Below are positions 5,845 through 63,203 of a DNA stretch of 64,000 nucleotides, piece after piece (the stretch's first letter is position 1; each line of letters begins with the position of its first letter). The notes beneath the pieces were generated by a model. The model searched no databases. It had not been told where the DNA came from and worked only from the letters and a program-made list of their open reading frames with translations. The translations under genes were made by a program, and so were the position numbers. The stretch is taken from positions 64,001 to 128,000 of the forward strand of contig JBGPIA010000011.1 of assembly GCA_041484665.1 (NCBI GenBank). Direction: 5' to 3'. Origin of the DNA: Candidatus Krumholzibacteriia bacterium. GTDB taxonomy: Bacteria; Krumholzibacteriota; Krumholzibacteriia; JAJRXK01.

Positions 5845-5885
5845 GGTCTCCCCTCCGGTACCAGCCGGCGAATGCTGTGATCAGT

Positions 5886-10532: not shown

Positions 10533-10746
10533 GGCTCGGGATCGTCCTGCCCGGCGTGGGCGTTTTCGAGGAGAGCTGGGGTTGGGCGGCCCGGGACCAC
10601 GGAGGTCGTCGTATGAGATTCTACCATGTGCCGCAGCCCGGAGCTGGCGCTGTGCCTCTGCCGGGCGGCTCGCGGGGTGCTCTGCGGTCGTGCACCCCTT
10701 GGGACCGGACGCCTGGTCACGGCCGCAGGATCCTGTCCGACACGCG

Positions 10747-10762
10747 TGCGATGCGTGGGCCA
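10747..10762 (-). promoter_or_regulatory. Candidate sigma54 -24/-12 promoter for the large secreted-protein genes
   Basis: Minus strand TGGCCCACGCATCGCA (GG-N10-GC; consensus TGGCAC-N5-TTGCW). Confidence 0.45.
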
Positions 10763-10802
10763 GATGGGGACTTTTGCGGCAATATGTCATCAAGCTGTTT
10801 TC

Positions 10803-10815
10803 TATCAACTGGTTG
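10803..10815 (+). promoter_or_regulatory. IHF-binding consensus site
   Basis: TATCAACTGGTTG matches WATCAANNNNTTR exactly, in an AT-rich patch of the divergent intergenic region. Confidence 0.5.
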
Positions 10816-10916
10816 AGACATCGCTGTGGGCGCCCGCCCGCGCGGTCGTCTCGCAAAATCTGGCGAGCCGGTTCCGCGGGGGCCCCGTGGCGCGCGGCCT
10901 GCGCAGTCGGAAGGAC

Positions 10917-38496: not shown

Positions 38497-38646
38497 GGGA
38501 GCGATGGAGGGCGCGAAGGCGAGGAAAGCCGCGGTACCGCTGGGTCTGGCGAGCGGGAATACGTCCCGTACAGACCACTGGCGCGCCGACGTCAGCACAA
38601 TGTATGTCCGGCTTCGCCGGGAACACCGGCCTCCGGGCGCTTCGAG

Positions 38647-39999
38647 ATGACCATGCGCGGGCACGGCCCCACCACTAGCCAGCTGATCGCTCTGCTGGAG
38701 GCCAGCAAGCTGCTCAACAGCACGCTGGACCTCACCACGCTGCTCAATCGCATCCTGCAGTGCGCGCGGGACCTGAGCGGCGCCGACCGCGCCACGCTCT
38801 ACCTGGTCGACCACGAGACGAGCGAGCTATGGACTATGACCATGGCGGGCGACAAGATCCAGTCGTTCCGCCTGCCGATGGGCAAGGGGATCGCGGGTCG
38901 CGCCGCGCAGACTGGCCGGGTGGGCAATATCGCCGACGCCTATCGCTCCCCGCATTTCAACCGCGACCTGGACGCCAAGACCGGGTACCGCACGCGCTCG
39001 ATGCTGACCGTGCCGTTCCGCGGGCGCGACCGCCGCGTGCTCGGCGTGATCCAGACCATCAACCACCTGGAGCGCGGCCACTTCGGCCCGGCGGAGCGCT
39101 GGTCGATCGAACGTCTGGGGGACTACGCCGCGCTGGCCATCGAGAACGCGATGTTCGTCAAGGCGCTGCAGGACAAGAAGCGCATGGAGGAGGACCTGCT
39201 GGCGGCGCGCCACATCCAGGGCAGCCTCCTGCCCAAGAGCCTGCCCCGCGTCGCGGGCGTTGACCTGGCCGCCCGCTACACGCCGTGCCTGGAGGTGGGG
39301 GGCGACTGCTTCGATGCCCTGGCGCTGCCCGGCGGCCGCCTGGGCTTCTCCCTGGGCGACATCTCCGGCAAGGGGATCACGGCCGCGCTCATGATGGCTA
39401 ACCTGCAAGCGCTCTTCCGCGTGGAAGCGCGCCGCGACGGCGAGCCGCACGCGGTGCTCTCGACGATGAACCGCCTGTTCCACGAGAGCACGCAGGTCGA
39501 GCACTTCGCGACCTTCTTCTACGGCATCCTCGATCCGGTCACCGGCTTGCTGCGCTTCTGCTCCGCGGGCCACGAGTCGCCGGTGCTCCTGCGCGGCGAC
39601 GGCAGCATCCTGGAGGTGGATCGTGGCGGCGTGCCGCTGGGCATCCTGCCGGACTTTCCGTTCGTGACGCAGGAAGCCGCGCTGCGCCAAGGCGACCTCT
39701 GCCTCATCTACAGCGACGGCATCACCGAGCAGAACGATCCCAAACGCCGGGAGTTCGGTCGCGCGCGGCTGATCTCCATCGTGCGGCAGTCGCGCCACTT
39801 GCCCGCCGAGGCGCTCGCCCAGGCCGTGGAGGTGGCCGTGCGCGAGTTCGCCCGCGGCCAGAAGCAGTGGGACGACCTCACGCTGGTGGTCTTGCGATTG
39901 GCGGTGGGCACGCCAGCGGTGGTGGCGGACGGCGCAGCGCCCGCGGTCACGAGCGGGGAGCGGCCAGGCGCTCCGGCGGAAAGCGCCGGGGACCATTGA
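38647..39999 (+). CDS. GAF-domain PP2C/SpoIIE (RsbU-like) phosphatase
   Basis: GAF motifs ADRATLYL, GKGIAG, TGYRTRSML; PP2C motifs VGGDCFD, GDISGKG, SAGH, YSDGITE, DDLT. Confidence 0.92.
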   Translation: MTMRGHGPTTSQLIALLEASKLLNSTLDLTTLLNRILQCARDLSGADRATLYLVDHETSELWTMTMAGDKIQSFRLPMGKGIAGRAAQTGRVGNIADAYRSPHFNRDLDAKTGYRTRSMLTVPFRGRDRRVLGVIQTINHLERGHFGPAERWSIERLGDYAALAIENAMFVKALQDKKRMEEDLLAARHIQGSLLPKSLPRVAGVDLAARYTPCLEVGGDCFDALALPGGRLGFSLGDISGKGITAALMMANLQALFRVEARRDGEPHAVLSTMNRLFHESTQVEHFATFFYGILDPVTGLLRFCSAGHESPVLLRGDGSILEVDRGGVPLGILPDFPFVTQEAALRQGDLCLIYSDGITEQNDPKRREFGRARLISIVRQSRHLPAEALAQAVEVAVREFARGQKQWDDLTLVVLRLAVGTPAVVADGAAPAVTSGERPGAPAESAGDH

Positions 40000-42712: not shown

Positions 42713-43530
42713 TGCTCTCGCACGCGACGATGCCCGCAGCGGGCCCCTACGACGATCCAGCCGTCTACGATATCCTCCACACCCCCGGATCGGCGGCGGA
42801 GCTGGACACGGTGCAGCGCCTCGCGCGCCGCCACCTGGAAGCGCAGGGGCGAGGCCGGCGCCGGTACACGTGGCTCGAGCCGGCGTGCGGCACCGGGCGC
42901 TATCTGCGCCTGCTGGCGCGGCGCGGCGAGCACGCCGTTGGATTCGATCGTGACCCGGCGATGGTGGCGTATGCCCGTCGCGGGATGCGTGCGCTGGGGC
43001 CGCAGCGGCGCGCCCGCGTGCTGGTCGCCGACATGACCCGCTTCGCCGACCGGGTGGGGCCGCGCCGCATCGACATCGCCTTCAACCTCGTCAACACGAT
43101 CCGCCACTTGCAGAACGATGCGCAGATGCAGGCGCATCTCATCGAGGTTGCCCGCGTGCTGCGCGCCGGTGGCCTGTACGTGGTGGGCATGAGCCTGACG
43201 CAGTACGGAGCGGAATTGCCCAGCGAGGATCTCTGGGTGGGAAGGCGCGGCTCCTGCCGGGTGACCCAGCTCGTGCAGTACCTGCCGCCGGGGAGCCCGG
43301 GCCCCCGGGGGCGGATCGAAACTGTGATCAGCCATCTGATGATCGAGCGTCCCCGGGGCGTCGAGCATCGAGATGCGACCTACGACTTGCGCTGCTACGA
43401 CGCCGCGCAGTGGCGTAAATTGGTGGAGCGTAGCCCGCTGCGGATCGTCGCGGCGGCCGATGCCCACGGCAACCCGATCGTGGACTGGAATACTACCTAT
43501 GTAGTTTTCTTGATGCGGTCCGCCCCTTGA
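42712..43530 (+). CDS. Class I SAM-dependent methyltransferase
   Basis: YDDPAVYDI, WLEPACGTGR, ADMTRF, LRAGGLYVVG; start overlaps the cax stop. Confidence 0.88.
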
Positions 43531-43709
43531 CAGGTCCGTCCCCGGGGGTGGACCTTGTCCCGGTCGCCCCTGGCTGTCCTGCGTTGTCCCCACCGGGGCA
43601 CGGGCATAGAAGCTGCAACCTCAGCAGGGCCTCCGACCCTCGAGCTCGACCGGCGCGACCATTCCGGAGCGGTTTCGGGGCCGTCGGCCACTGGCAGGCC
43701 AGGCTCAAC

Positions 43710-44636
43710 ATGGCGACGATCCAAGCACCCCGCGTGCCTTCCTCCCGCGCTGGCGCGGCCGAGCGTTCGGGGACCTCCCTCAATCCGCTCGCCATGCTGC
43801 CGAATCTGCTCCTGTTGGCGATCACGCTGGCAGGCCTTCCGTATTACGTGCTCGCGGCAGCCGCGCGACTGCGCAGCCCCTTCCATCCGTGGTTGAAATC
43901 GTCGGGCTACGTAGGACAGACGGCGGGCCTCGTGACGTTCGCTGGTTTCCTGTTCATGTGGCTCTACCCGATGCGCAAGCGGATGCGCCTGCCGCCCCGC
44001 GCCGGGTCGGTCCCGCAGTGGCTCGACGTGCACATCGTCGTAGGGCTCACACTGCCGCTGCTGGGCGCGCTCCACGCCGGCTGGCGCTTCCGGGGCCTGA
44101 TCGGCCTGGGCTATCTGGCCATGCTCATCGTGTGCCTGAGCGGAGTGATCGGTCGGTATCTCTACGTCAGGATCCCGCGCAGCCGCGCCGGAGCCGAGCT
44201 GGACCGCGAGGAGGTCGCGGCGCAGCGCCGCCAGCTCCTGGCCGACCTGACGGAGGCCACCGGGCTCACCACCGAGGATCTGGAGCAGATGCTGACCGTG
44301 CAGACGGTACGGGCGTCTCGCGGCAGGCTGCTGGGGGCGCTCGCGCAAATGGTGGTCGACGATTTCGCGCGCGCGCGCACCCTGCGCGCTTTGCGCAGGC
44401 GCTGGAAGGCGCGCGGGCCCGACGGTGCGACCCTGGACCGCACCGCCCTCAACCGCGGGCTCTCGCTCGCCCGAAGGGAGATGGCCCTCAGCCAGCAGGT
44501 CCGCCTGCTGGAGGCCACGCAGAAGATGTTCCGTTACTGGCATGCGGCGCACAAACCGGTCGCGATCGCGGCATTCGGCGCCGTCACCGTCCACGTGATC
44601 GTCGTGATCGCAGTGGGCTCGACCTGGCTCTGGTAG
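43710..44636 (+). CDS. Inner-membrane protein with intramembrane histidines (ferric-reductase-like / cytochrome b-like), 308 aa
   Basis: About 5 TM segments; WLDVHI, ALHAG, SGVIGRYLY, FRYWHAAHKP, VHVI. Confidence 0.72.
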   Translation: MATIQAPRVPSSRAGAAERSGTSLNPLAMLPNLLLLAITLAGLPYYVLAAAARLRSPFHPWLKSSGYVGQTAGLVTFAGFLFMWLYPMRKRMRLPPRAGSVPQWLDVHIVVGLTLPLLGALHAGWRFRGLIGLGYLAMLIVCLSGVIGRYLYVRIPRSRAGAELDREEVAAQRRQLLADLTEATGLTTEDLEQMLTVQTVRASRGRLLGALAQMVVDDFARARTLRALRRRWKARGPDGATLDRTALNRGLSLARREMALSQQVRLLEATQKMFRYWHAAHKPVAIAAFGAVTVHVIVVIAVGSTWLW

Positions 44637-44662
44637 GACGAAGTCGAGGCGGGAGCGCTCCG

Positions 44663-46105
44663 ATGGGAATGCTGCTCACCACACTGGCCTTTGCCGTCCT
44701 CACGGCCGCGCTCGTCGCCCACCACGTGCGCCGCGGCGCAGCAGCGCCGGGTCAAGCTTGCGCGCCCGTCGCGGCCTGCCCGCGTTGCAAGGCGGCCATC
44801 GCGCCTGGGACGACCCGCTGCTCGCGCTGTGGCGTTCCGCTGCAGGCCTTCGAAGTCGTGGCCGCCGCCAAGGCCAGCGAGGAGGTCAGCGAGGGCGGGG
44901 ACAAGTTGCACGCGGTCGTGCGCGCGGACCTCTGCGTCGGCTGCGGGTCGTGCGTCTCCGTCTGCCCCGAGCCGGGCGCCATCCGGATGGACCACAAGCT
45001 CGCCGTGGTGGCCAAGGCGCTCTGCGTGGGGCACGGCAAGTGCGCCGAGGCCTGCCCGGTGGGGGCCATCATCATGTCCACCGGCGCCGCGGTGCACCGC
45101 GTCGAGGTGCCGGAGATCGACATCCACTTCGAGAGCAACGTGCCCGGGGTCTACGTCGTCGGCGAGCTGGGCGGGCGTGGACTGATCAAGAACGCCATCA
45201 ACGAGGGCAAGATCGCCGTCGAGCACATCGCCGACGAGCTGGGGGGAGGGTCACGCCGCTCACCGGACACAACGGGCGTCCACGATGTGGTCATTGTCGG
45301 ATCGGGACCCGCCGGCCTCAGCTCCGGACTGCAGGCCCTCCAGTCGAAGCTGCGGTACGCTGTCCTGGAGCAGGGGACGCTCGCCGACACGATCCGCAAG
45401 TACCCGCGGGCGAAGCTGCTGCTGGCCGAGCCGGTGACGGTTCCGCTGTACGGCGATCTGTGGGTGGCCGATGCTTCGAAGGAGTCATTGCTGAAGGTGT
45501 GGGAGACGGTCATCGCCAGCACGGGACTGCAGGTGCGCACGGGCCAACGTGTGGTCAACGTGGCACGCCACGGCGATCTGCTCCACGTCGCGACGCCCGA
45601 CGCAGTGTTCCGCACGCGGCGCGTGGTGCTGGCCACGGGCCGGCGCGGGACACCGCGGCGCCTGGGGGTACCCGGCGAGGAGCTGGGCAAGGTCATCTAT
45701 GACATCGCTGAGATGGAATGCTTCGCCGGCCAGCGGATGCTCGTGGTCGGCGGCGGCGACAGCGCCGTGGAGTCGGCGCTGGGGCTGGCCCGGCAGCCGG
45801 GCACGGTGGTGACGCTCAGCTACCGCGGCGATTCCTTCAGCCGCGCGAAGGAGCGGAACAGGACGAAGCTCGAGACGGCCGTCGCAGAGGGGAGCGTGCG
45901 CGCGCTGCTGCGTAGCGAGGTGCGGGCGGTCCACGAGCAGGAGGTCGAGATCGAGGTGGCGGGCAAGCGCAGCATGCTGCCCAACGACACAGTGGTCGTG
46001 CGCATCGGCGGCGAGCCGCCCGCCGCATTCCTGAAGCAGATCGGCATCCGCATCGTCAAGAAGGACGTGCCGCTGCCGCAGGGAGAGGAGGCGATGGTTG
46101 GCTAG
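44663..46105 (+). CDS. Membrane-anchored 4Fe-4S dicluster / FAD-dependent NAD(P)H oxidoreductase (TrxB/YpdA-like fold), 480 aa
   Basis: N-terminal TM; CPRC..CSRC ribbon; CVGCGSCVSVCP and CVGHGKCAEACP; VIVGSGPAG; LATGRRG; VVGGGDSA..SYRG. Confidence 0.85.
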   Translation: MGMLLTTLAFAVLTAALVAHHVRRGAAAPGQACAPVAACPRCKAAIAPGTTRCSRCGVPLQAFEVVAAAKASEEVSEGGDKLHAVVRADLCVGCGSCVSVCPEPGAIRMDHKLAVVAKALCVGHGKCAEACPVGAIIMSTGAAVHRVEVPEIDIHFESNVPGVYVVGELGGRGLIKNAINEGKIAVEHIADELGGGSRRSPDTTGVHDVVIVGSGPAGLSSGLQALQSKLRYAVLEQGTLADTIRKYPRAKLLLAEPVTVPLYGDLWVADASKESLLKVWETVIASTGLQVRTGQRVVNVARHGDLLHVATPDAVFRTRRVVLATGRRGTPRRLGVPGEELGKVIYDIAEMECFAGQRMLVVGGGDSAVESALGLARQPGTVVTLSYRGDSFSRAKERNRTKLETAVAEGSVRALLRSEVRAVHEQEVEIEVAGKRSMLPNDTVVVRIGGEPPAAFLKQIGIRIVKKDVPLPQGEEAMVG

Positions 46106-48449
46106 CACGCGCCGGGGAACGCTTGCATGGACGCAGCGTCCACCGACGCCGACCCCGCTGGCCCAGCATCCGTTGGCGCAGCGTCCGGCGCCGCCGCGCC
46201 GCACGCTGTGGCCGCCTCAAGCGGCTAGCGCCGTGCGCACGACGGCCACGGCCCTGGGTGCCGCGCTGGCCCTGACGTGCGTCGTCACCGCAGCCGCCCG
46301 GGCGCAGATCTCGCCGGGCCCGCTGTCGCGCGCCCACGCCAGCCTGGAGGGCAACCTCCACTGCGCGAAGTGCCACGGTGGCGGAGGCGAGAGCGCGCAG
46401 GACCAGCGGTGTCGTGCTTGTCATGAGGAGATCGACTGGCTCATCCGGCAGGAGCGGGGACTCCACGGGCACGAGGTGAAGGGGAACTGTAAGAGCTGCC
46501 ATCCGGAGCATGCCGGTGCCGGCTTCCAGCTGATCGTGTGGAAGGAGGGCAGCCCGGAGCGCTTCGACCACACGCGCACGGGCTGGGCGCTGGAGGGAAA
46601 GCATGCGACGGTGCAGTGCAAGGAGTGCCACAAGGCGAGCTTCCAGCAGCCGCAGATCGTGGCGCGGATGCAGCGCAAGGACAAGGCAGCGAGCTGGCTG
46701 GGTCTGGACTCCGGTTGCCGCTCCTGCCACGAGGACGTGCACCGGGGGACGCTTGGAGTGGATTGCATGAAGTGCCACGACACGAAAGCCTGGAAGCCGG
46801 CGCCGCGATTCGACCACGCGCTGTCGGACTTCCCGCTCACCGGCAAGCACGCGGCGAGGGCGTGCGCGAAGTGCCATGCCACGCCCGAGCTGAAGCTGGT
46901 GAAGGATCGGCAGGGGCACGCGATTCCGCTCTTCAAGCCGCTGCCGCACCAGGAGTGCTCCGCGTGCCATAAGGACCCCCATGCCGGCTCGCTGGGGGCC
47001 GCTTGCACCAAGTGCCACACGACCGACGACTTCCATCGCATCGACCACAAGACGTTCAATCACGACCTGACGCGCTACCCGCTGCGGGGCAAGCACGCGG
47101 CGCTGGCGTGCGCGAAGTGCCACGATCCGGCCACTGCGTGGGGTAAGAAGCCGGCGTTCGCTACGTGCGGCTCCTGCCACACGGATCCCCACGCTGGCCA
47201 GGCTACGAGCGCGGGCAAGCCGGCCGATTGCGCTGCCTGCCACAGCGTCCAGGGCTTCAAGCCGGGCACCTTCACGGTGCAGCAGCACGCCGCAACGCGC
47301 TACCCGCTGGACGGGCGGCACCAGCAGGTGAAGTGCTCCAGCTGCCATGGCCGCAAGCCACCGGGGGATGCGGCCAAGGCCGCGGCCACCGTCGGCAAGG
47401 CTGGCGTGTGGTTTCGTCCGACGCACGACCGCTGCGGTGATTGCCACGCTGAAGTGCACGGCGGCCAGCTCGCACACCGGCCCGACACGGGGGCCTGCGA
47501 AGGCTGTCACACCACGCAGGGCTGGCGCCCCAGCACCTTCACCGTGGCGGCACACGCCGCGCTGCGCCTGTCGCTGGAAGGCCGCCACGGCGCGATCGCC
47601 TGCTCCGCATGCCACGGGCCCGACCGCAGTGGGCTGCCACAGCTGCCAGGGCCCAAGGTCCTGGGCACCGCCCGCGTCGCATTCACGTTCACCGACGTCT
47701 CCTGCACGGCCTGCCATTTCGATCCCCATCACGGACGATTCAGCGCCGGGGGCGAGCGTGCCCGGTCCAAGGGTTGCCTGGACTGCCACGACCCGCGCGC
47801 GTTCCGCCCGTCAAAGGTGGACATCGCGGCTCACGCCGCGGCCCGCTTCGCGCTGGACGGCGCCCACCGCGCGGTGCCGTGCTTCGCCTGCCACCAGGAG
47901 CTGGCCGGCGCGGGCGGAGCGGCCAGCGGGGCGGCAAAGGCAGCCGCGAACGGTGCGGCGAACGGAGCGGCGAATGGGGCGGCGAACGGGACCGCGAGCG
48001 GGACCGTGAATCGGGCAGCGAACGCGGCCCCGATCGTGGCCACGGCGGCTGGTTCCGACACCGCCGCGGCTCGCGGGCGCGCACGCTCGACGCTGGTGGC
48101 TGCCACCGCCGCGGTGCGCCGCGCGTTGCCGTTCGCGATCGACAAGCGCGCATGCCGCGACTGTCACCGCAGCCCCCACGGCACACAGTTCGACGCACGG
48201 AAGGACCATGGAGCGTGCGAGAGCTGCCACGGTCTGGAGAGCTTCAAGCCCGCTGTGGGCTTCCATCACGCCAAGGACTCGTCGTATCCACTCGAGGGGG
48301 CGCACACGAAGGTTCCCTGCGCGCGTTGCCATCCCACGAAGACTGGCAGCGACCGACGCCCGCAGGTGATCTACCGTCCACTTTCCACTCGTTGTGAGAG
48401 CTGTCATGGGGCGGCGCCCGTAGCGCCGCTGAAAGGGGAGCTGCGATGA
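46098..48449 (+). CDS. Multiheme c-type cytochrome, 23 CXXCH motifs
   Basis: Signal peptide ending AARA-QISPGPLS.AH; 23 CXXCH counted by hand; triheme units FDH..(F/Y)PL.G.H. Start could be a later GTG. Confidence 0.93.
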   Translation: MASTRRGTLAWTQRPPTPTPLAQHPLAQRPAPPRRTLWPPQAASAVRTTATALGAALALTCVVTAAARAQISPGPLSRAHASLEGNLHCAKCHGGGGESAQDQRCRACHEEIDWLIRQERGLHGHEVKGNCKSCHPEHAGAGFQLIVWKEGSPERFDHTRTGWALEGKHATVQCKECHKASFQQPQIVARMQRKDKAASWLGLDSGCRSCHEDVHRGTLGVDCMKCHDTKAWKPAPRFDHALSDFPLTGKHAARACAKCHATPELKLVKDRQGHAIPLFKPLPHQECSACHKDPHAGSLGAACTKCHTTDDFHRIDHKTFNHDLTRYPLRGKHAALACAKCHDPATAWGKKPAFATCGSCHTDPHAGQATSAGKPADCAACHSVQGFKPGTFTVQQHAATRYPLDGRHQQVKCSSCHGRKPPGDAAKAAATVGKAGVWFRPTHDRCGDCHAEVHGGQLAHRPDTGACEGCHTTQGWRPSTFTVAAHAALRLSLEGRHGAIACSACHGPDRSGLPQLPGPKVLGTARVAFTFTDVSCTACHFDPHHGRFSAGGERARSKGCLDCHDPRAFRPSKVDIAAHAAARFALDGAHRAVPCFACHQELAGAGGAASGAAKAAANGAANGAANGAANGTASGTVNRAANAAPIVATAAGSDTAAARGRARSTLVAATAAVRRALPFAIDKRACRDCHRSPHGTQFDARKDHGACESCHGLESFKPAVGFHHAKDSSYPLEGAHTKVPCARCHPTKTGSDRRPQVIYRPLSTRCESCHGAAPVAPLKGELR

Positions 48450-51067
48450 GACGCGTACCCGGAGCGGTCTGGCTGGCCTTTCTGCTCGCGGCCGCCAGCC
48501 TCGCTATCGCCGCGGTCGGGGATCAGGTCCCGCCCCAGCAGCAGCAATCGGGGCAGCCCAAGTCCGCGCAGCCGCGGGCCGTGAAGCCACTCGCCACACA
48601 GTCGCAAACCGCACCATCGCAGTCGACGAGGACGCAGGCATCCAAGCCGCAGGCGACAAAGCCACAGGCCACGCAACCGCAGGCATCAAAGCAGCAGACG
48701 GCGCCGTCGCAGGCCACGAAGGCGCAGGTAGCAAGACCGCAGGCCGCGCAGTCGCCGGCCGCCACGGCCGCTCCCGGCCAGCCGCCCTATCCGCACGGAG
48801 CCTTCCGTGAGGACTGCGCCCTGTGCCACCGTCCCGACAGCTGGACGCCGGCGCGCATCAGCGTCCGCTTCGACCATTCGCGCTTCGGATTCAAGCTCGA
48901 CGGAGCGCACGCCTCGGCGTCGTGCCGGGGCTGTCACAAGAGTCTGGAGTTCGCCGCTGCTCCGACCGCATGCATCGACTGCCACCGCGACGTCCACCAG
49001 GGCGAGTTGGGCACCGAATGCTCCGGCTGCCACGGTACGCAGAGCTTCGTCGACCGCGGTGACCAGGTGCGGATGCACCGCCTGACGCGCTTCCCCCTGG
49101 CCGGAGCGCACACCGCACTGGACTGCGCATCGTGCCATCCGCTGGCGGCCCCGGGAGCCCTGACCTACGTCAAGACGCCTACGACGTGCGAGGCCTGCCA
49201 CATGAAGGACTTCCGGGCGACCACCAATCCGGACCACCAGGCGGCGGGCTTTACCCACGAGTGCACGACCTGCCACTCGGAGGCCAGCTGGAGCCGCGCT
49301 CGGTTCGACCACGCCGGCACCAACTTCCCGCTCACGGGCGCCCACCAGATCGTGGCCTGCAACAGCTGCCACACCGGAGGGACCTTTGGAGCGCTGGCGA
49401 CCACCTGCGTCTCGTGTCACCAGGCCGACTACAACAACACGACGAATCCGAACCATCGCTCAGGCGGCTTCCCCACCGATTGCACCCAGTGCCATAGCAC
49501 GGTGAATTGGAGCGGCGCGACCTTCAACCATGCGACGACCGGCTTCGCGCTGACCGGCGCGCACGCCGCGGCGCAGTGCTCGCAGTGCCACACGGGGAGC
49601 AGCTTCAGCGGGCTCTCGTCCACGTGCGTCTCGTGCCACCAGGGCGATTTCAATGGCACGACGAATCCCGATCACCGCGCCGGAGGCTTCCCCACGGATT
49701 GCACGCAGTGTCACAGCACGGCGACCTGGAGCGGCGCGACCTTCAACCACGCCACGACCGGCTTCGCACTGACCGGCGCGCATGCCGCGGCACAGTGCGC
49801 GACGTGCCACGCGGGGGGCGTTTTCACCGGCCTATCGCCCACATGCGTGTCATGCCATCAGAATGACTACAACGGCACGACCAACCCCAATCACCGCACG
49901 GCGGGCTTCCCCACCGATTGCACCCAGTGCCACACGACGGCGACGTGGACCGGCGCGACGTTCAACCACGCCACGACGGGCTTCGCGCTGACCGGCGCGC
50001 ACACGGCGCTGCAGTGCGCGCAGTGCCATGTGGGGGGCAATTACAGCATTACGTCGCCCGCGTGCGTGTCGTGCCACCAGAACGACTTCAATAGCGCCAC
50101 GAACCCCGATCACCGGGCGGCTGGCTTCGCCACCGATTGCACCCAGTGCCACAGTACGGCCAGCTGGAGTGGCGCCTCGTTCAACCACGCGACGACCGGC
50201 TTCGCTCTGACCGGCGCGCACACGGGGCTGCAGTGCGCGCAGTGCCACGTGGGGGGCAATTACAACATCACGACGTCTGCGTGCGTGTCGTGCCATCAGA
50301 ACGACTTCAACGGCACGACGAACCCCAGTCACCAGACGGCGGGATTCCCCACCGATTGTACGCAGTGCCACACCACGGCCACCTGGCCCGGCGCGACGTT
50401 CAACCACGCGACGACCGGTTTTGCTCTCACCGGCGCGCACACGACGCTGCCGTGCGCACAGTGCCACGTGGGGGGCAACTACAACATCACGTCGCCCGCC
50501 TGCGTGTCGTGCCACCAGACTGACTTCAACGGCACTACCAATCCCGATCACCGCGCGGCGGGCTTCCCCACCGATTGTAGCCAGTGCCACAGCACGGTGA
50601 ATTGGAGCGGCGCTAGCTTCAACCATGCGACGACCGGCTTCGCGCTGACCGGCGCGCACGCCGCGGCGCAGTGCGCGCAGTGCCACGTGGGGGGCAACTA
50701 TACGAATGTGTCGCCCGCGTGCGTGTCGTGCCACCAGACCGACTACAATGGCACGACCGATCCTCCGCATGCGACGGCGGGCTTTCCCACCGATTGTTCA
50801 CAGTGCCACAGCACGGCGACGTGGGCAGGAGCGACGTTCGACCACGATGCGGCCTACTTCCCCATCTACTCGGGAAGGCACAAAGGCAAGTGGGACGCCT
50901 GCAGCACGTGCCACACGAACTCTGCGAACTACACCGTGTTCAGTTGCTTCGGCTGCCATCCGCACGACGACCAGGCGGGGACCGATAGCCACCACCAAGG
51001 GCAGAGTGGCTACCGGTACGAGAGCACGTCCTGCTACCGCTGCCATCCCCGGGGGAACGCAGGATGA
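48446..51067 (+). CDS. Multiheme c-type cytochrome, 31 CXXCH motifs, with seven 73-aa triheme repeats
   Basis: Signal peptide; Gln/Ala/Pro-rich linker; 31 CXXCH counted by hand; C-terminal SCYRCHPRG. Confidence 0.94.
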   Translation: MRRVPGAVWLAFLLAAASLAIAAVGDQVPPQQQQSGQPKSAQPRAVKPLATQSQTAPSQSTRTQASKPQATKPQATQPQASKQQTAPSQATKAQVARPQAAQSPAATAAPGQPPYPHGAFREDCALCHRPDSWTPARISVRFDHSRFGFKLDGAHASASCRGCHKSLEFAAAPTACIDCHRDVHQGELGTECSGCHGTQSFVDRGDQVRMHRLTRFPLAGAHTALDCASCHPLAAPGALTYVKTPTTCEACHMKDFRATTNPDHQAAGFTHECTTCHSEASWSRARFDHAGTNFPLTGAHQIVACNSCHTGGTFGALATTCVSCHQADYNNTTNPNHRSGGFPTDCTQCHSTVNWSGATFNHATTGFALTGAHAAAQCSQCHTGSSFSGLSSTCVSCHQGDFNGTTNPDHRAGGFPTDCTQCHSTATWSGATFNHATTGFALTGAHAAAQCATCHAGGVFTGLSPTCVSCHQNDYNGTTNPNHRTAGFPTDCTQCHTTATWTGATFNHATTGFALTGAHTALQCAQCHVGGNYSITSPACVSCHQNDFNSATNPDHRAAGFATDCTQCHSTASWSGASFNHATTGFALTGAHTGLQCAQCHVGGNYNITTSACVSCHQNDFNGTTNPSHQTAGFPTDCTQCHTTATWPGATFNHATTGFALTGAHTTLPCAQCHVGGNYNITSPACVSCHQTDFNGTTNPDHRAAGFPTDCSQCHSTVNWSGASFNHATTGFALTGAHAAAQCAQCHVGGNYTNVSPACVSCHQTDYNGTTDPPHATAGFPTDCSQCHSTATWAGATFDHDAAYFPIYSGRHKGKWDACSTCHTNSANYTVFSCFGCHPHDDQAGTDSHHQGQSGYRYESTSCYRCHPRGNAG
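49304..50836 (+). repeat. Seven tandem 219-bp coding repeats (triheme unit)
   Basis: ttc(a/g)accac/t recurs at 49304, 49523, 49742, 49961 and onward to 50837 with an exact 219-bp period. Confidence 0.92.
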
Positions 51068-52791
51068 CGCAGTTCCCGCGTCGAAGCGCGATTGGCTGGG
51101 TCGTCATGGCAGTCGCCGCGCTCGCGCTTCTGGGAGGCGCGCCCTGCGTGGCGTGCGCGGCGCTCGCCGCGACGTCCGCGGCAACGGACACGACGCCGTC
51201 AGCATCCGGCGCCACGCCGCGCATGATGACCGCGGGCAGGGTCACCTACCTGACCGGCACGACCGCGTACGTCGATCTCGGACGCGACGACGGGCTGGGT
51301 GAGGGGGACCGTCTGGAGGTCGTTCGCGGTGGCAAGTCCGTGGCGACGCTGCAGGTGAGCTACGTGTCGTCGCACCGCGCTGCCTGTGCGATCCAGCCGC
51401 CGGAAGCGACGCTCGCGGAGGGCGATCCGGTGCGCGTGGTGGCCCGCGCCACCCGCGCGGACGCGGCGGCGACCGCGCCCGTGGCCACAGCGTCGACCAA
51501 CCTCGTGGCCGCGGCGCCGGTGCGCCGGAAGGGCTCCTGGCTCAACGAGATGGGGCTGCGGGGCCGCGTGGGCGGGCGGTTCCTCGGACTGAAGGACCGC
51601 AGCGGCACCGGTGCCAATCTCAAGCAGCCCGGTCTGGAGATGCGCGTCGACGGAACGCGGGTGGGCGGAGCACCCATCGACCTGGCGGTAGACGTCCGGG
51701 CGCGCCAGACATTCCAGACTCTGCCCGACGGGGGATCCCAGCACGCGGGCCAGACGCGCGTATACCGTCTCGCGACGACGTGGCACTTGCCCGATCCGCA
51801 CTTCCACGTGAGTGTCGGGCGGCAATTCTCCTCCGCGCTCTCCACCGTCAGTACGTTCGATGGCGTGGAGGCGGAGCTCGATGCCGGACAGGTCGGCGTG
51901 GGCATCTTCACCGGCACCCAGCCCGGGCCCATCGATTACAGCTTCTCCACCGACGTCTGGGAGCACGGACTGTTCTTTCGGGTGCACGGGCCGGGGCCGA
52001 CTGCGCAGATGGCGCAGGTGGGTCAGGGAGGGCAGATGGCGGCCCGTTGGGAGGTGGTGACGGCCGCGATCGGCTCGTACCAATCGGGCCAGATCAACCG
52101 TGAGTACCTCACCACCCAGGGCCGGCTCGACGCGCATGGGCTGTCGCTGTCGCTGTCCCAGGACCTCGACCTCAACCGCGGCTGGAAGCGGGACGCCGGC
52201 GAACAGGCCGTCTCGCCGACGAACACCTTCGTGAGCGCGCGTATGCGCGTAGCCCAGCGACTCGACCTGGACGGCGGGTTCGACAACCGGCGCAACATCC
52301 GCCTGTACCGTGACCGGATCACTCCGGAGACGGAGTTCGACGACACGTACCGGCAGGGGATCTGGGGCGGGAGCGGGCTGCGCGTCGGCGGTCACCTGCG
52401 CGTGGGAGCGACCGTCCGCAACAGCAGCGGCGGGGCCGCCGGCGCCTCGACGTCATGGGGTATGACCGCGGCCGCCAGCCGGCTGACCCCGGCGCAGGTG
52501 GATCTCCGGCTGCGGAGCACGCGCTACAACAGCGACCTGACCGAAGGGTGGATGCACACGCTCTCGGGCGGAGTGCGGCCGGGGCAGCGCCTGGGGCTCG
52601 AGCTGTTCGGCGGTGTCCGCACCGACCAGGGGAAGATCCAAGGCACCTCCGACGCGCGCGCCACGTGGTTCGGGGCCGACATGGACCTCGGCGTGGGCCG
52701 TCACTGGTACCTGGCGATCTCCGCAGAGCGGGACGAGCGGGGCCCGGAGCAGTTCGATCAGGTCTACGGCATGCTCAACTATCGCTTCTAG
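51064..52791 (+). CDS. Probable outer-membrane beta-barrel protein with a small N-terminal beta domain
   Basis: Signal peptide; YVDLGRDDGLGEGDRLEV; alternating amphipathic strands; C-terminal YGMLNYRF beta-signal. Confidence 0.78.
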   Translation: MTQFPRRSAIGWVVMAVAALALLGGAPCVACAALAATSAATDTTPSASGATPRMMTAGRVTYLTGTTAYVDLGRDDGLGEGDRLEVVRGGKSVATLQVSYVSSHRAACAIQPPEATLAEGDPVRVVARATRADAAATAPVATASTNLVAAAPVRRKGSWLNEMGLRGRVGGRFLGLKDRSGTGANLKQPGLEMRVDGTRVGGAPIDLAVDVRARQTFQTLPDGGSQHAGQTRVYRLATTWHLPDPHFHVSVGRQFSSALSTVSTFDGVEAELDAGQVGVGIFTGTQPGPIDYSFSTDVWEHGLFFRVHGPGPTAQMAQVGQGGQMAARWEVVTAAIGSYQSGQINREYLTTQGRLDAHGLSLSLSQDLDLNRGWKRDAGEQAVSPTNTFVSARMRVAQRLDLDGGFDNRRNIRLYRDRITPETEFDDTYRQGIWGGSGLRVGGHLRVGATVRNSSGGAAGASTSWGMTAAASRLTPAQVDLRLRSTRYNSDLTEGWMHTLSGGVRPGQRLGLELFGGVRTDQGKIQGTSDARATWFGADMDLGVGRHWYLAISAERDERGPEQFDQVYGMLNYRF

Positions 52792-52879
52792 CCGGGCGGA
52801 CGGACTGCAGGCGCCACGTCGCCGAACCGTGAGCAGACCGCGGAAGACAGCGGTAGACAGCGGCCGACCGCGGCGCCGA

Positions 52880-53746
52880 TCAGGGGGCGGATCGCTCGCG
52901 GATCACGGGGGCTGGGCCACTCGACAGCACCGGAAGGGACGCGCCCAGCACCACCCGATTCAGCCCCACCCGGCACCGCCGCGCCAGCACCTGCACGCCC
53001 GCTGCGCGGGCCTCCTGCAGGGCTTCCGCAAAGCCGGGATCGATGTGCCGCGCGGCGCGCACGCTTTGGGCGTCGGGGCGCTGCACCACGAACAGCACGG
53101 CCGCCACGCACTTTGCATGCCTCGCCAGATCCGCGAGCTCGCGGAGGTGCCGTGCGCCGCGCGCGGTAACGGCGTCGGGAAACAAGCCGACTCCGTCCTC
53201 GACCAGCGTCACGCTCTTCACCTCCAACAGCATGCGTCCTCGTACCGTACCGTCCGCCGCGATCCGCCGCGCCCTGTGCCGCTGCCCGCCGTTCGCCGCC
53301 GCCCACGGTCCCGCCGCGGCTCCGCGCGCGCCCGGGTCGCACAGCAGGAAGTCGAACCGGCTGTGCCCCACCGTGACCTCCGCCCGCTCCAGCGTCCAGG
53401 CGCCGAGCTCGGGCAGGGCGCCGGCCCGCAGCGCCGCCGCGACCAGGCGATTGGGTAACGTGGTGTCCAACGAGACCAATCCGCGGCCACTGGGCGTCTG
53501 GACCAGCGCGGCCGACCAACGCGTGCGGCGCGGCGCGCCACCGCCGCGCCGCGCGCCCAACGCATCGCGCAGCCACACACGGCGGCCCGCGACCAACAGC
53601 TCCCGCAACCGTCCCGGATCGGCGAGGTGCGCGGTGACCACTCCGCCCGTCGCCGCCAGGCGGCAGCGCAGCACGAAGCGGTTGGGGCGCGTCAGGAAGC
53701 GCGCCTCGTGGAGAGGCGAGGGCCACGCAATCGAGACCAGCGGCAT
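52880..53746 (-). CDS. sfsA: SfsA family DNA/RNA nuclease (sugar fermentation stimulation protein)
   Basis: RPNRF, AHLADPGRLRELL, SRFDFLL, EVKSVTL, FPDAVTARGARHL, DPGFAEAL. Confidence 0.92.
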   Translation of the reverse strand: MPLVSIAWPSPLHEARFLTRPNRFVLRCRLAATGGVVTAHLADPGRLRELLVAGRRVWLRDALGARRGGGAPRRTRWSAALVQTPSGRGLVSLDTTLPNRLVAAALRAGALPELGAWTLERAEVTVGHSRFDFLLCDPGARGAAAGPWAAANGGQRHRARRIAADGTVRGRMLLEVKSVTLVEDGVGLFPDAVTARGARHLRELADLARHAKCVAAVLFVVQRPDAQSVRAARHIDPGFAEALQEARAAGVQVLARRCRVGLNRVVLGASLPVLSSGPAPVIRERSAP

Positions 53747-53790
53747 CGCGGCCAAAGGAGAACGCGGCCGCGGTGGCGCGGCCCGTTCGC

Positions 53791-54213
53791 TCAGGCTTCC
53801 TCCGACCTCGACGGCTCGCTCTTCGGGGCTGCCTCGGGCCTGCCCTGCGAACCGTAGGGATAGGCGGGAAGCTGTGTGGGGCGGAAGACAACCCTCGTAA
53901 TCCCGTGTTGCGCGAGCTCGGTCAGGAGAGCGTCCGCGCTCTGGACCAGCCAGTTCATGTACTCCCGGGTCGCCTCCAGGCTCTGTCTGACCTCCTCGAC
54001 GGTAAAGGCGCAGGGCCAGGGCGGGTAGCAGGGCGGCCCGCCGGGGTCGACCACTGCGGGTGCATTCGGAACCGTGACGACGACCTGCTTGCCCCCGTCC
54101 TCCACTTGCTGCACCGCCCCGAGGAAGAGATCGCCGTAGAAGCGCATGGCGTTTTCGGTCAAGCGCAGCTCCTTCCAGGCCTGCCGCGCGTCGAACGGGA
54201 TGGTCTTGTTCAT
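53791..54213 (-). CDS. Hypothetical protein, 140 aa
   Basis: GGAGAGGA RBS before the ATG at 54213; protein-like composition; fills the gap between the kinase and sfsA. Confidence 0.7.
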   Translation of the reverse strand: MNKTIPFDARQAWKELRLTENAMRFYGDLFLGAVQQVEDGGKQVVVTVPNAPAVVDPGGPPCYPPWPCAFTVEEVRQSLEATREYMNWLVQSADALLTELAQHGITRVVFRPTQLPAYPYGSQGRPEAAPKSEPSRSEEA

Positions 54214-54246: not shown

Positions 54247-57024
54247 TCAGGGCTTTTCCGCACGCGCGGTTCCCAGCAGCTGGGCGAGCTCCACGTTACG
54301 CACATAGTCGGAGTCGGCGTCAGTCCACAGCGTGCGCAGGCGCTCCAGAGCCGCGCGCGCACCCGCGCGGTCACCCTGGGCCTGGTTGCTTTGGCCCAGC
54401 AGGAGCAACGCGTCCGGGTAATTGGGGTTGAAGGCCAGCACGCCCTGGGCGGCCCCGGCGGCCTCCTGCGGGTCGCCCCCGGCCAGGAGCGCCTCGCCCA
54501 GCGCCGTGCGCAGGAGCGGTTCATCGAGGCGGCCGGAGTAGGTGAGGGCCCGGCGGTGCATGCGCACCGCCCGCGGGAGATCGCGCTCCGCTTCGGCGAG
54601 CTTCCCCTCCAGGTTGTAGTAGTAGCGTTTCGCGGTCAGCGCCTCGGCGGTGGTGGAGTCCTCCAGGCTGCCCGCGAGCTGGTCGGCGATGGCGAGCGCG
54701 TGCTGCTGCGCCGCCGGCAGGTCGCCCGCGGCGACGGAGAGCAAGCCCGCGATCCAGCGATTGTACCAGTCGTCTTGGATCTGCAGGGCCTGCGCGGCGC
54801 GCTGCTGCCCGCGCGCCGTCTCGCCGCGCACGTAGTCGAGGTAGGCGAGTTGCGCGAGCGGGCGCGAGTGGTCGAAGTACCCGCCGGGGTTTTCCTGCCA
54901 GCGCACGAGCGATTGCTCGGCCGCGCGCATTCGGCCCAGGTGCAGCAGCACGACCGCGCGGTAGGGGAGGTCGGCTCCTGACCGTTTGAGCGCGAGGGTG
55001 TCGCACAGCCCCAGCGCCACGCCATAGTCTCCCACCATCCCCTGCAGCTGAATCGTCCACATGAGCGGAAACGCCTCGTCCGGCAGGCGCTGGCGCCACT
55101 GGCGGCAGAGGCGCAGCGCCTCGCGGGGCCGGCCGATCTCCATGGAGCAGATGGTGAGATCGGCGAAGAACGAGGTGTCGAATGGATTGTGCTCGCGGAC
55201 CGCGTTGAACTCGGCGTCGGCCTGCAGCCACTGTCGACGGCGCATGTACACGCGGGCGAGCTTGACGCGCGCGTCGACCTCCTCGGGGTGCTCCGCCAGG
55301 ATCTGCTCGTAGCGCCGAGCCGCTTCGTCGTACTGCTGGTGGCCGAGGAACCACTCCGCCTCGACCAGATCGCGCAGCGTCTGGGGAGCGCCGTGGCGGT
55401 ACTTCATGGCCAACGTCAGGAATCGTAGCCGCCCCTCCTCGTCCAGAGCCAGCCTGGCCAGGTACAGGTACGCATGTGCGAACGACGAGTCCGCAGCGAC
55501 GGCTTCCTGGAAGCTCGCCCTCGCCGCCGGCGTGTCGTGCCGCTGGTAATGCCGCAGGCCCTCTTCGAAGAAACGCATGGCTTCCACGGAGCTCGTGGAG
55601 TGCGCCGGCGACGCGGCGTCCTTGCCCGTGACGCGCTGCAGCGGGGCGCGCAGAGCCTGCGCGATGCTTCCGGCCAGCGTGTCCACGGAGCCGAAGAACT
55701 CCGCGTCGAGGTCGTGCAACTCACGGGGCCAGCTGGCCACCACCGCGCCCCTGTCCAGATCCTGGAGCTCGCAGTTGATGCGGATCCGGCCGCCGCTGGC
55801 GGTGTAGTTTCCGCTCACCAGATACGCGGCCTTCGCCTCGCGCGCTGCCCCGAACAGGTTGCGCACGGGGATCCCGGCGGCCTGGGGCGCTGCGACCTCC
55901 AGCGCGGACATGACCGTGGTGCGGCTGACGACGGTGTAGCCATCCACGCGCCCCAGCGCTCCGATCAGCCCGTCCATGATGCCGCTGGAAAGCCACTCCA
56001 GGTCCGCCACGCCGCGCGTGTTGTCGAACGGGGCCACCATGATGCGGCGCGGCGCAGGAGCCCGGCCCGCCCGCTCGAGCACGCGCGGGCCCAGCAGCGC
56101 GAGCGCGACCAACAAGACGCCCAGTCCTGCCCACTGCGCGCGCCGCCTCGACCGCGTCCAGCGCTGCGCGTACAGCGTCTGGTCCGTCGCAGGCGCGCTC
56201 GCCGCGAGCCGGGCGCGTACGATCTCCAGATCGTGCAGCAGGCTGTTGGCATCGGGGTAGCGATGCTCCGGCTCCTTGGCCAACGCGCGCGCCACGATCT
56301 CGTCGAAGCCGGCGGGCAGTCCGACCGTCAGCGTGGAGAGCCGGGGCGCCTCGACGGTGAGCAGATCGTGCACGAACGAGCCCCGTTCCTTGGGCTCGAA
56401 GGGAAGCCGGCGGGTCAGCATCTCGAACAGGACCACGCCCAGCGAGTAGAGATCGGCCCGGGCGTCCACCGGACGGCCCTGCAGCTGCTCGGGCGCCATG
56501 TAGCAGAGCGTGCCCACGATCTCGCCGGCGCGGGTGATGGTGGTGCTGTCGACCAGATGCGCCACCCCGAAGTCGAGCACCTTGCAGTGCCCCTCGGGGG
56601 TGACCATGACGTTTTCCGGCTTGAGGTCGCGGTGCACCAGCCCGTGGGCGTGGGCCGCGCGCAGCCCGTCGGTGACCTCGCACGCGATGCGGACGGCCTG
56701 GGCGGCATCCACTCCCTCGCCGCCCAAGATGGCCCGCAGCGTGCGCCCGCGCACGTACTGCATGACCAGGTAGAGCCCCTCACCGTCCTGGAGCGCCTCG
56801 AACAGGGTGACGATGTTGGGATGATCGAGATCGGAGATCGCGCGCGCCTCGCGCAGGAAGCGCGCGCGCTCGGTGGGGCCGGCCAGCGCTGGGTGCTTGA
56901 GGGCCTTGACGGCCACCGTGCGCCCGAGCATGAGGTCCTCGGCGCGGTACACGGCACCCATCGACCCCTCCCCGAGCAGCTCGAGGAGGCGGTAGTGCGA
57001 GACGGTGGGGGACACCGGGACCAT
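54247..57024 (-). CDS. Hanks-type Ser/Thr protein kinase with TM, TolB-N-like domain and TPRs
   Basis: LGEGSMGAVY, VAVK, HRDLKPEN, DFG, YMAPE, DLYSLG; VAPFDN; multiple TPRs. Confidence 0.95.
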   Translation of the reverse strand: MVPVSPTVSHYRLLELLGEGSMGAVYRAEDLMLGRTVAVKALKHPALAGPTERARFLREARAISDLDHPNIVTLFEALQDGEGLYLVMQYVRGRTLRAILGGEGVDAAQAVRIACEVTDGLRAAHAHGLVHRDLKPENVMVTPEGHCKVLDFGVAHLVDSTTITRAGEIVGTLCYMAPEQLQGRPVDARADLYSLGVVLFEMLTRRLPFEPKERGSFVHDLLTVEAPRLSTLTVGLPAGFDEIVARALAKEPEHRYPDANSLLHDLEIVRARLAASAPATDQTLYAQRWTRSRRRAQWAGLGVLLVALALLGPRVLERAGRAPAPRRIMVAPFDNTRGVADLEWLSSGIMDGLIGALGRVDGYTVVSRTTVMSALEVAAPQAAGIPVRNLFGAAREAKAAYLVSGNYTASGGRIRINCELQDLDRGAVVASWPRELHDLDAEFFGSVDTLAGSIAQALRAPLQRVTGKDAASPAHSTSSVEAMRFFEEGLRHYQRHDTPAARASFQEAVAADSSFAHAYLYLARLALDEEGRLRFLTLAMKYRHGAPQTLRDLVEAEWFLGHQQYDEAARRYEQILAEHPEEVDARVKLARVYMRRRQWLQADAEFNAVREHNPFDTSFFADLTICSMEIGRPREALRLCRQWRQRLPDEAFPLMWTIQLQGMVGDYGVALGLCDTLALKRSGADLPYRAVVLLHLGRMRAAEQSLVRWQENPGGYFDHSRPLAQLAYLDYVRGETARGQQRAAQALQIQDDWYNRWIAGLLSVAAGDLPAAQQHALAIADQLAGSLEDSTTAEALTAKRYYYNLEGKLAEAERDLPRAVRMHRRALTYSGRLDEPLLRTALGEALLAGGDPQEAAGAAQGVLAFNPNYPDALLLLGQSNQAQGDRAGARAALERLRTLWTDADSDYVRNVELAQLLGTARAEKP

Positions 57025-57223
57025 GGGGCGCTCCCGTCGTCGAGGAGGACAGCGGCGTCAGCCCCGGGTCCAGGCTATCCCAATGCAATCCGGAGGAACA
57101 AGTGCGGAACATGCGCGGAACGAGTGACGAGGCGCCGCGCCGCGCCGGGCAGGCGCCCTCCGGCACGCGCGCGACGGTGACCAGGTCGAGGGCCCACCGC
57201 CGGCGGCCCTTCCTGTGGTGCCT

Positions 57224-59239: not shown

Positions 59240-59242
59240 GCC

Positions 59243-60202: not shown

Positions 60203-60230
60203 GATCTGTCTCCTGGCTGTGGGGGGGAGC

Positions 60231-62990: not shown

Positions 62991-63203
62991 GATTTTATCG
63001 GCTTAGAGCCGTCCTTGTGTCAGCGTCCGGCTTCTGGCCTGATCTCTCGTCTGTGCAGCCGCCGCGCCATGCGCCCGGGCTCGCCTGCCGTGCCGCGCCC
63101 GGGTCTGCCTGGGCCCGCCTGCGCCTGCCACGCGCCGGCGGCGCGCCGGCGGCGCGACTGCGGCGCGCGCGCCGGGCGACGCCGACCTTGACGCGGCCGT
63201 GGC

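Follow-up and report, generated by a model that had tools for sequence, protein, structure and literature searches.

Organization of the Locus

The window analysed here (G000:C11:64001-128000; 64,000 nucleotides with a G+C content of about 70%) comes from a Candidatus Krumholzibacteriia bacterium and contains five co-oriented genes, designated g1 to g5. They encode an inner-membrane protein, a membrane-anchored Fe-S flavoprotein, two multiheme cytochromes c and a predicted outer-membrane barrel. The cluster matches the published PCC3 type of porin-cytochrome operons in composition, gene order and motifs, and the flavoprotein g2 was found to be a near-constant companion of the inner-membrane protein g1, to which it likely delivers electrons taken from NAD(P)H and not from quinol.

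An earlier reading of the same DNA, referred to below as the original prediction, had described a five-gene operon that looked like a complete conduit for electrons from NAD(P)H to the outside of the cell. All five open reading frames were recovered at the predicted coordinates on the + strand, to which all the features described within them also belong. The close packing of the genes was likewise borne out by the sequence, with a 26-nt gap between g1 and g2, an 8-nt overlap between g2 and g3, and ATGA overlaps at the g3/g4 and g4/g5 junctions. The number of CXXCH motifs, 23 in g3 and 31 in g4, or 54 in all, had also been counted correctly.

The operon is present in a single copy in the source genome. 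Conserved synteny, proposed earlier as a check, was observed in other genomes, where the five genes occur as a conserved unit. Because the five-gene arrangement recurs in many genomes, it is far beyond chance.

The Inner-Membrane Protein g1

Gene g1 (43710..44636) encodes a protein of 308 amino acids which, from its motifs and structure model, was classified as an inner-membrane protein of the PCC3 'IMP' type with two predicted b-hemes. In the model (pLDDT 81.6), long helices span residues 26-41, 67-92, 101-122, 129-154 and 244-302; five long hydrophobic helices are thus combined with a helical insert of about 110 residues, which would lie in the cytoplasm. Hydropathy analysis yielded four segments above threshold, and the fifth long hydrophobic helix (67-92) was added by the model.

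Three motifs were found on these helices. The third long helix carries W104-x3-H108-x13-H122 (44019..44075), invariant in 28 sequences, and the fourth carries S144-G145-x-x-G148 (44139..44153), invariant in the alignment of 28 homologues (A2). On the last helix lies W277-x3-H281-x13-H295 (44538..44594), in which W277, H278, H281 and H295 are invariant in the same number of sequences. Five of the six histidines of g1 are invariant in the family; with six among 308 residues, the protein is not His-rich, contrary to the original prediction.

A profile of g1 retrieved 3088 representative clusters at E ≤ 1e-3. Among the 106 full-length representatives within the best 150, two WX3HX13H motifs were present in 90 and SGXXG in 104. 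None of the ten clusters of distant relatives that were looked up bears a name, and of the clusters returned by the protein atlas one has a label, 'pyridine nucleotide-disulfide oxidoreductase family', while the others are unnamed.

No Pfam or NCBIfam family was obtained above threshold for g1, which stays below the curated cut-off of the ferric reductase/NADPH oxidase (NOX) profile PF01794 and has no match to it at E ≤ 0.01. Sub-threshold matches recurred in two sets of family members: Ferric_reduct in 12/28 and 10/26 (best E 5.5e-4), Ni_hydr_CYTB in 8/28 and 8/26, and DUF4405 in 6/28 and 21/26. The His pairs H108/H122 and H281/H295, each with 13 residues between its members and placed on two helices, are arranged as in the ferric reductase/NOX domain. 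The bis-His signature of two-heme b-type proteins is therefore present in g1, in agreement with the b-heme-like membrane protein originally proposed. From this spacing and the recurrent weak Pfam matches, g1 is predicted to hold two b-hemes stacked across the membrane.

The Fe-S Flavoprotein g2

Gene g2 (44663..46105; 480 amino acids) had been described as a membrane-anchored Fe-S/FAD protein that binds NAD(P), and its domain content agrees with this description. A 4Fe-4S dicluster domain (Fer4_21, 47.2 bits against a cut-off of 35) and a Pyr_redox_3/Pyr_redox_2 flavodomain (143.6 bits for Pyr_redox_3) both scored above their Pfam cut-offs, and a hydropathy scan detected an N-terminal hydrophobic helix (residues 1-22; 44663..44728), followed by HHVRRG. 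Next comes a zinc-ribbon-like element of four cysteines, C39, C42, C53 and C56 (44777..44830), read from the sequence and matched by Pfam DZR below cut-off.

The ferredoxin domain (44912..45076) consists of a CxxCxxCxxxCP motif and a subsequent CxxHxxCxxxCP motif with conserved ligands. Across 35 sequences, seven cysteines do not vary (C91, C94, C97, C101, C121, C127 and C131), and at least 90% of the sequences have H124. Because of the His in the second motif, one of the clusters may be of the 3Fe-4S type or have His as a ligand.

The FAD/NAD(P)-binding domain (45281..46075) was delimited by conserved motifs and by alignment with YpdA/Bdr. It contains GSGPAG and GGGDSAVE and no CXXC; G213, G215, P216, G218, G363-D366, A368 and E370 are invariant in 35 aligned homologues. 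The closest solved chains were those of YpdA/Bdr (7a7b and 7a76), followed by thioredoxin reductases (TrxR) and TrxR-type ferredoxin-NADP reductases. The alignment with YpdA/Bdr runs from end to end of the flavodomain and is poorer with the other two groups, and the YpdA/Bdr profile TIGR04018 gave 169.4 bits, below its cut-off of 339.9. Thus, g2 shares with YpdA/Bdr and the TrxR-type ferredoxin-NADP reductases a common flavodomain, the FAD/NAD(P) motifs and the lack of a CXXC; what sets it apart is the fused two-cluster ferredoxin domain, along with the N-terminal membrane anchor and the zinc-ribbon-like element.

A second class of g2-like flavodomains was also observed, represented in the source genome by G000:C9:1713-2837 and by 19 entries in the phylum sample. 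Its members align from about position 148, without the ferredoxin domain, in open frames of 530-990 amino acids with no linkage to g1. In another genome of the same family (G057:C9:183549-184943), the g2 beside g1 matches the profile in two pieces, 3-198 and 310-475, and may be disrupted.

Cytochromes g3 and g4 and the Predicted Barrel g5

Gene g3 (46098..48449) encodes a cytochrome c of 783 amino acids with 23 CXXCH motifs, one per 34 residues, which matches the Cytochrome_C7 and c3 families and is predicted to be periplasmic. Its position downstream of g1 and g2 is conserved. The 8-nt overlap with g2 hinges on the TTG start at 46098, which is preceded by GGAGAGGAGG; an alternative GTG start at 46233 opens a plausible signal peptide. 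A 12-nt tandem repeat (window 47915-48041) encodes an (A-A-N-G)n low-complexity linker between heme motifs 1-19 and the last four. Since homologues of g3 often align only to about residue 600, the C-terminal four-heme module may be optional.

Gene g4 (48446..51067) encodes a cytochrome c of 873 amino acids with 31 CXXCH motifs, one per 28 residues. It has a signal peptide, is rich in Q, P, T and K near its N-terminus and is predicted to be extracellular. Cytochrome_C7 (120 bits) and MtrC/MtrF II-IV (59 bits) were both above cut-off, and the c3 family was matched as well. The protein is rich in A (14%), T (13%), G (9%) and S (8%). A 219-nt tandem unit, repeated 6.6 times at 49406..50846 with three CXXCH per copy, was detected by Tandem Repeats Finder (score 1571, 79% matches).

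Gene g5 (51064..52791) encodes an exported protein of 575 amino acids, in which a small beta domain near the N-terminus (58-125) precedes a predicted barrel of 22 strands (165-575). The AlphaFold2 model had a pLDDT of 80.7, exceeding 90 across most of 165-575. The protein ends in ...YGMLNYRF, and its folding as a 22-strand outer-membrane barrel in the model agrees with the beta-signal and barrel originally ascribed to it. Foldseek returned 271 PDB matches at E ≤ 1e-3, of which the listed top ones were nearly all outer-membrane barrels. In VIA, the best match was OccK7 (Z 17.9, root-mean-square deviation (rmsd) 4.2, 279 aligned residues), and the 22-strand receptor PirA reached Z 16.5. No Pfam or NCBIfam family was assigned to g5; MtrB-type barrels were absent among the 50 matches listed for it in either search, Foldseek or VIA, though a relationship to them may exist.

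The presence of cytochrome c maturation genes had been named as a further check. The source genome encodes Ccm system I, with CcmC/CcmF-type and CcmE genes, and gave no match for ResB.

Relation to PCC3 and Other Conduits

PCC3 was defined by He, Barco, Emerson and Roden in 2017 (PMC5566968) as a porin, an extracellular cytochrome (median of 34 heme sites), a periplasmic cytochrome (median of 21) and an inner-membrane protein (IMP), and was first met in Fe(II)-oxidising bacteria. The IMP is described there as having about 300 amino acids and five helices, with SGXXG on the fourth and WX3HX13H on the third and fifth. In Sideroxydans lithotrophicus ES-1 (Slit_1446-1449), the genes follow the order IMP, periplasmic cytochrome, extracellular cytochrome, porin (PMC12016527).

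Each of these elements was found in the window. With 308 amino acids and five long helices from hydropathy and model, g1 has the size and build of the IMP, and its helices 101-122, 129-154 and 244-302 hold WX3HX13H, SGXXG and WX3HX13H, respectively, invariant in 28 sequences. The cytochromes agree in motif number (23 and 31), in density (34 and 28 residues per motif) and in the T/S/A/G-rich repeats of g4. The porin corresponds to g5, judging by its 22-strand model and the barrel matches in Foldseek and VIA.

The cluster is therefore an ordinary member of the PCC3-type porin-cytochrome operons, likened to them through the published composition, order and motifs. It shares with them an IMP of about 300 amino acids, a periplasmic cytochrome of about 21-27 hemes, a repeat-bearing extracellular cytochrome with many hemes and a barrel, in the same order. 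The statement in the original prediction that no part resembles Mtr or Pcc components has to be given up, because the motifs of g1 and the gene order match PCC3; g4 in addition passes the Pfam MtrC/MtrF II-IV cut-off.

Two differences from PCC3 as published were noted. The flavoprotein gene g2 lies between the IMP and the first cytochrome, and the host is not a proteobacterium. In the available text of PMC5566968, the terms FAD, flavo and ferredoxin have no occurrence, and the parts of PMC10734462 (a survey of Gallionellaceae), PMC8788666 and PMC12016527 that deal with PCC3 mention no flavoprotein. Neither oxidoreductase nor NADH occurs in the available text of PMC12442390, and a full-text literature search yielded no report of PCC3 with a flavoprotein. 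Relative to the accounts of PCC3 cited here, the conserved flavoprotein g2 is an additional element.

A partial parallel is provided by PCC4 subgroup II, in which the gene of an Fe-S cluster protein lies beside the IMP and was once annotated as one gene with it (PMC5566968). The IMP motif pattern beside an Fe-S protein gene is common to both systems. PCC4 differs in having three periplasmic cytochromes and none that is extracellular, and its IMP has no significant overall homology to that of PCC3; the portion of PMC5566968 that describes subgroup II mentions no flavin domain.

With MtrCAB/MtoAB and the Geobacter Pcc systems (OmaB-OmbB-OmcB, Ext), the operon shares a barrel with periplasmic and surface multiheme cytochromes. 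It carries two to three times as many hemes as they do, and its barrel has no specific family. Membership in MtrCAB was not indicated by NCBIfam, with 31.7 bits against 192.2 for TIGR03508 (DmsE/MtrA) and 16.7 against 209.3 for TIGR03507 (MtrC/OmcA). The inner-membrane partners of Mtr and Pcc conduits are the quinol dehydrogenases CymA, ImcH and CbcL, not a flavoprotein.

NADPH oxidases, ferric reductases, STEAP proteins and the bacterial MsrQ-Fre pair follow the logic proposed here for g1 and g2: two bis-His b-hemes, stacked across the membrane, receive electrons from a flavoprotein that uses NAD(P)H in the cytoplasm, and the electrons then leave the cell. A likeness to these proteins may be seen in the recurrent weak Ferric_reduct matches; the structural match of g1 to STEAP4 is weak and within the background for helical bundles. 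Unlike in NOX and STEAP, the flavodomain of g2 is of the thioredoxin reductase type instead of the ferredoxin-NADP reductase type, an Fe-S relay is present and the functions are divided between two polypeptides. Five helices would come from g1 and one from g2, in place of six per chain, and the acceptor is a cytochrome wire.

Pairing of g1 and g2 Across Genomes

The genomic context was determined in three sets of sequences. For the first, a g5 profile yielded 285 relatives in species genomes, of which 80 loci were kept and 46 had at least 7.5 kb of sequence upstream of g5. These metagenome-assembled genomes (MAGs) were labelled Krumholzibacteriia/Latescibacteria, Acidobacteriota, Gemmatimonadota, Eisenbacteria and Binatia.

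In this set, g1 was found in 40 of the 46 assessable loci, and a g2-like gene in 38 of those 40, in five arrangements. It was colinear and full-length in 21 loci, colinear and partial in 2, and divergent upstream of g1 in 10; the rest comprised one inverted block (L025), two genes upstream on the same strand and two downstream of g5. The anchor segment stands at the N-terminus in both the colinear and the non-colinear type of g2, and the zinc ribbon is confined to the colinear type.

The six loci without g1 (L011, L021, L028, L029, L046 and L060) all have a g5-like barrel, and five have a g4-like cytochrome; g2 was found in none of them (0/6). Several g1-less loci represent an additional copy in a MAG that carries the full cluster as well (for example L011 with L008, L029 with L036, L060 with L056).

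The second set was a distant IMP clade with 27-32% identity to g1 on contigs of 28-54% G+C, obtained by a metagenome scan seeded with an alignment of the closer subset. All 36 loci whose downstream sequence reached 2.5 kb or more had g2 directly downstream of the IMP. After g2 came a cytochrome with 20 motifs and then one with 13-51 motifs, and a weak g5 match was present in 11 of the 15 loci with at least 9 kb downstream.

The third set was a sample of 201 genomes of the phylum, in which ferredoxin-bearing g2 was counted after removal of the 19 entries of the second paralogue. Gene g1 was present in 79 genomes and ferredoxin-bearing g2 in 75, both being found in 73, g1 only in 6, g2 only in 2 (at contig edges) and neither in 120; since related genomes are not independent, these counts are descriptive and do not amount to a statistical test. 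In each of the 53 genomes that carry g1 and g2 on one contig, the two share a strand and are separated by no more than 7.2 kb. Only two of the eight other genomes of the family to which the window belongs had g1, and the distribution is therefore patchy.

Taken over the named MAGs, the distant clade, the phylum sample and the Emticicia plasmid described below, the genes occur together in many genomes, as the original prediction required. Gene g2 is a near-constant, fixed partner of g1 despite changes in gene order.

A search for longer proteins returned only P0262 and no true g1-g2 fusion. Long open frames around g1 in phylum genomes proved to be antisense or chance frames, with g1 and g2 in different frames.

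A Plasmid-Borne Copy in Emticicia oligotrophica

Plasmid pEMTOL02 of the cultured bacterium Emticicia oligotrophica DSM 17448 (Bacteroidota) also bears the operon (L162; NC_018749.1 78197-89995). The order of genes is ccsA, an IMP of 281 amino acids with both motifs, a g2 homologue of 440 amino acids, a cytochrome with 23 motifs, a cytochrome with 40 motifs and a g5 relative of 538 amino acids. The g2 homologue has 37.5% identity to g2 and is named 'NAD(P)-binding domain-containing protein' at NCBI. Together with the IMP it makes up the pair EMTOL_RS21090/21095.

The ccsA gene, a cytochrome c biogenesis gene encoding 1028 amino acids, directly precedes the operon, so that a maturation gene moves together with the conduit. 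A full-text literature search found no paper that joins Emticicia and multiheme.

Genomic Surroundings

The upstream neighbour of the operon encodes a methyltransferase and the downstream neighbour, on the other strand, a Ser/Thr kinase with TPR repeats; both are unrelated to it. A scan of window 43300-53900 for promoters and terminators revealed nothing that exceeded the shuffled background. The surroundings (window 38497-39999 and 54247-63998) are rich in signalling genes, including a GAF-SpoIIE phosphatase, the Ser/Thr kinase-TPR protein, a CHASE2-adenylate cyclase and a sigma-54 activator, for which no operon link was found in related loci. The first part of the window (1462-11339, - strand) contains a pair of very long open frames, 1473 and 1818 amino acids in length, with high third-position G+C (GC3).

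Other multiheme genes occur elsewhere in the genome. Cytochrome frames are concentrated at G000:C2:704000-737600, and one frame there (C2:729236-732523) has 42 CXXCH.

Proposed Electron Path

The reading favoured here, with a probability of roughly 55%, is that of a PCC3-type operon in which g1 is fed by the NAD(P)H-type Fe-S flavoprotein g2, forming a quinone-independent route to the cell surface. An NAD(P)H-fed inner module is the most economical reading because g1 is constantly paired with a flavoprotein. The fixed FAD/NAD(P) motifs of g2, the lack of a redox CXXC and the full-length alignment of the flavodomain with those of YpdA/Bdr and the TrxR-type ferredoxin-NADP reductases also count for it.

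In this path, g2 would be held on the cytoplasmic face of the membrane by an anchor with its N-terminus outside and its C-terminus inside, as suggested by the positive residues after the helix. According to the positive-inside rule, the large insert of g1 and the loop between its helices 2 and 3 would face the cytoplasm, placing H108/H281 on the cytoplasmic side and H122/H295 on the periplasmic side. With the C-terminus of g1 outside and the helix of g2 running from outside to inside, the two proteins would together provide six helices and, after them, a dehydrogenase in the cytoplasm, an arrangement known from NOX-type enzymes.

NAD(P)H would be oxidised at the FAD of g2, and the electrons would hop over its two Fe-S clusters, the second with the conserved His replacing one Cys. 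They would then pass to the cytoplasmic-side b-heme (H108/H281) and the periplasmic-side b-heme (H122/H295) of g1, continue across the periplasm by way of g3, and reach an acceptor outside the cell via g4, whether through the g5 barrel or beyond it. The logic would be that of a split NOX- or ferric-reductase-like exporter that needs no quinones. The low potential of NAD(P)H and the membrane potential both speak for an outward direction of flow. Since such a path would conserve no energy, its likely role would be redox balancing or the reduction of insoluble acceptors.

Several observations weigh against the feeding of g1 by NAD(P)H. All Pfam matches in the g1 family lie below cut-off, and a Foldseek search with the g1 model was without matches at E ≤ 1e-3. 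The di-heme proteins matched by g1 in VIA (CybB, Z 7.6; STEAP4, Z 7.1; cytochrome b561, Z 7.0; FdnI, Z 6.4) had rmsd values of 3.3-5.1 over 127-148 residues, which is inside the range for unrelated helical bundles. Gene g1 occurs without a detected g2 in 2 of 40 named-MAG loci (L008 and L053) and in 6 of 79 phylum genomes. Apparent g1-g2 fusions, considered as evidence of contact (P0252, P0260 and P0262), have arginine-rich out-of-frame stretches separating the two homologous parts and are frameshift artefacts. Proteobacterial PCC3 clusters are described in the available parts of PMC12016527, PMC8788666 and PMC12442390 as four genes with consecutive locus tags and no flavoprotein between the IMP and the cytochrome. 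Finally, the path would dissipate membrane potential, which is odd for an apparatus of 54 hemes.

Alternative Explanations

Two further points against NAD(P)H feeding speak at the same time for a quinone-linked PCC3 as published, in which the IMP exchanges electrons with quinones. He et al. proposed the IMP as a quinone-active cytochrome b (PMC5566968), and the weak Ni_hydr_CYTB matches of g1 relatives are to quinone-reactive cytochromes b; FdnI and CybB also appear among the structural neighbours of g1. Here, g1 would be a quinol oxidase or quinone reductase, and g2 would supply or drain local quinones in the manner of NDH-2, or act in regulation. Two Fe-S clusters and a membrane anchor would, however, be needless for a quinone reductase, no quinone-site motif was identified, and the pairing of g2 tracks g1 specifically through several gene orders. 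This explanation is considered rather unlikely. Even less likely would be a role for g2 outside the main path, as a reductase of the thiol/disulfide type or one concerned with maintenance, serving to protect or mature the cytochrome system. The best NCBIfam and PDB matches of its flavodomain are indeed to YpdA/Bdr, but the TIGR04018 score is far from its cut-off (169 against 339.9 bits), the fused ferredoxin domain with invariant ligands suggests an electron relay, and cytochrome c maturation is periplasmic whereas g2 is predicted to be cytoplasmic. Such a role appears very improbable.

The conduit could also run inward, the direction suggested for PCC3 in iron-oxidising bacteria. Fe(II) outside the cell, minerals or other cells would then be the electron source, with g2 reducing NAD(P)+ or another cytoplasmic acceptor. 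The first discovery of PCC3 in Fe(II)-oxidising bacteria (PMC5566968) is consistent with this direction, as is the rise in expression of the IMP gene of one PCC3 copy in Sideroxydans sp. CL21 during iron oxidation (PMC12442390), and porin-cytochrome conduits can run either way (PMC10734462). On the other side, expression of the PCC3 genes was lower on Fe(II) in S. lithotrophicus ES-1 (PMC8788666), and the reduction of NAD(P)+ would be uphill for most Fe(II) species and directed against the membrane potential, with no coupling site evident. Inward flow seems distinctly improbable.

Significance

The g1-g2 pair bears on the entry of electrons into PCC3-type conduits at the inner membrane. More broadly, g1 and g2 could form a widespread and so far unrecognised split NOX-like module that passes electrons from NAD(P)H to a surface heme wire without quinones. 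Such a module could be the missing entry point at the inner membrane for the PCC3-type conduits of the MAG lineages named above and of Bacteroidota, portable on a plasmid with its own maturation gene. This wider proposal is put forward tentatively, at slightly less than even odds.

The system is common, with the IMP in 79 of the 201 sampled genomes of the phylum. Because a plasmid copy exists in Emticicia oligotrophica DSM 17448, a cultured aerobic heterotroph, the idea can be tested by ordinary genetics and biochemistry. If it holds, it would establish a route of extracellular electron transfer independent of the quinone pool, and genes of this kind in soil and sediment metagenomes would be read as signs of redox balancing or mineral reduction, not of iron oxidation.

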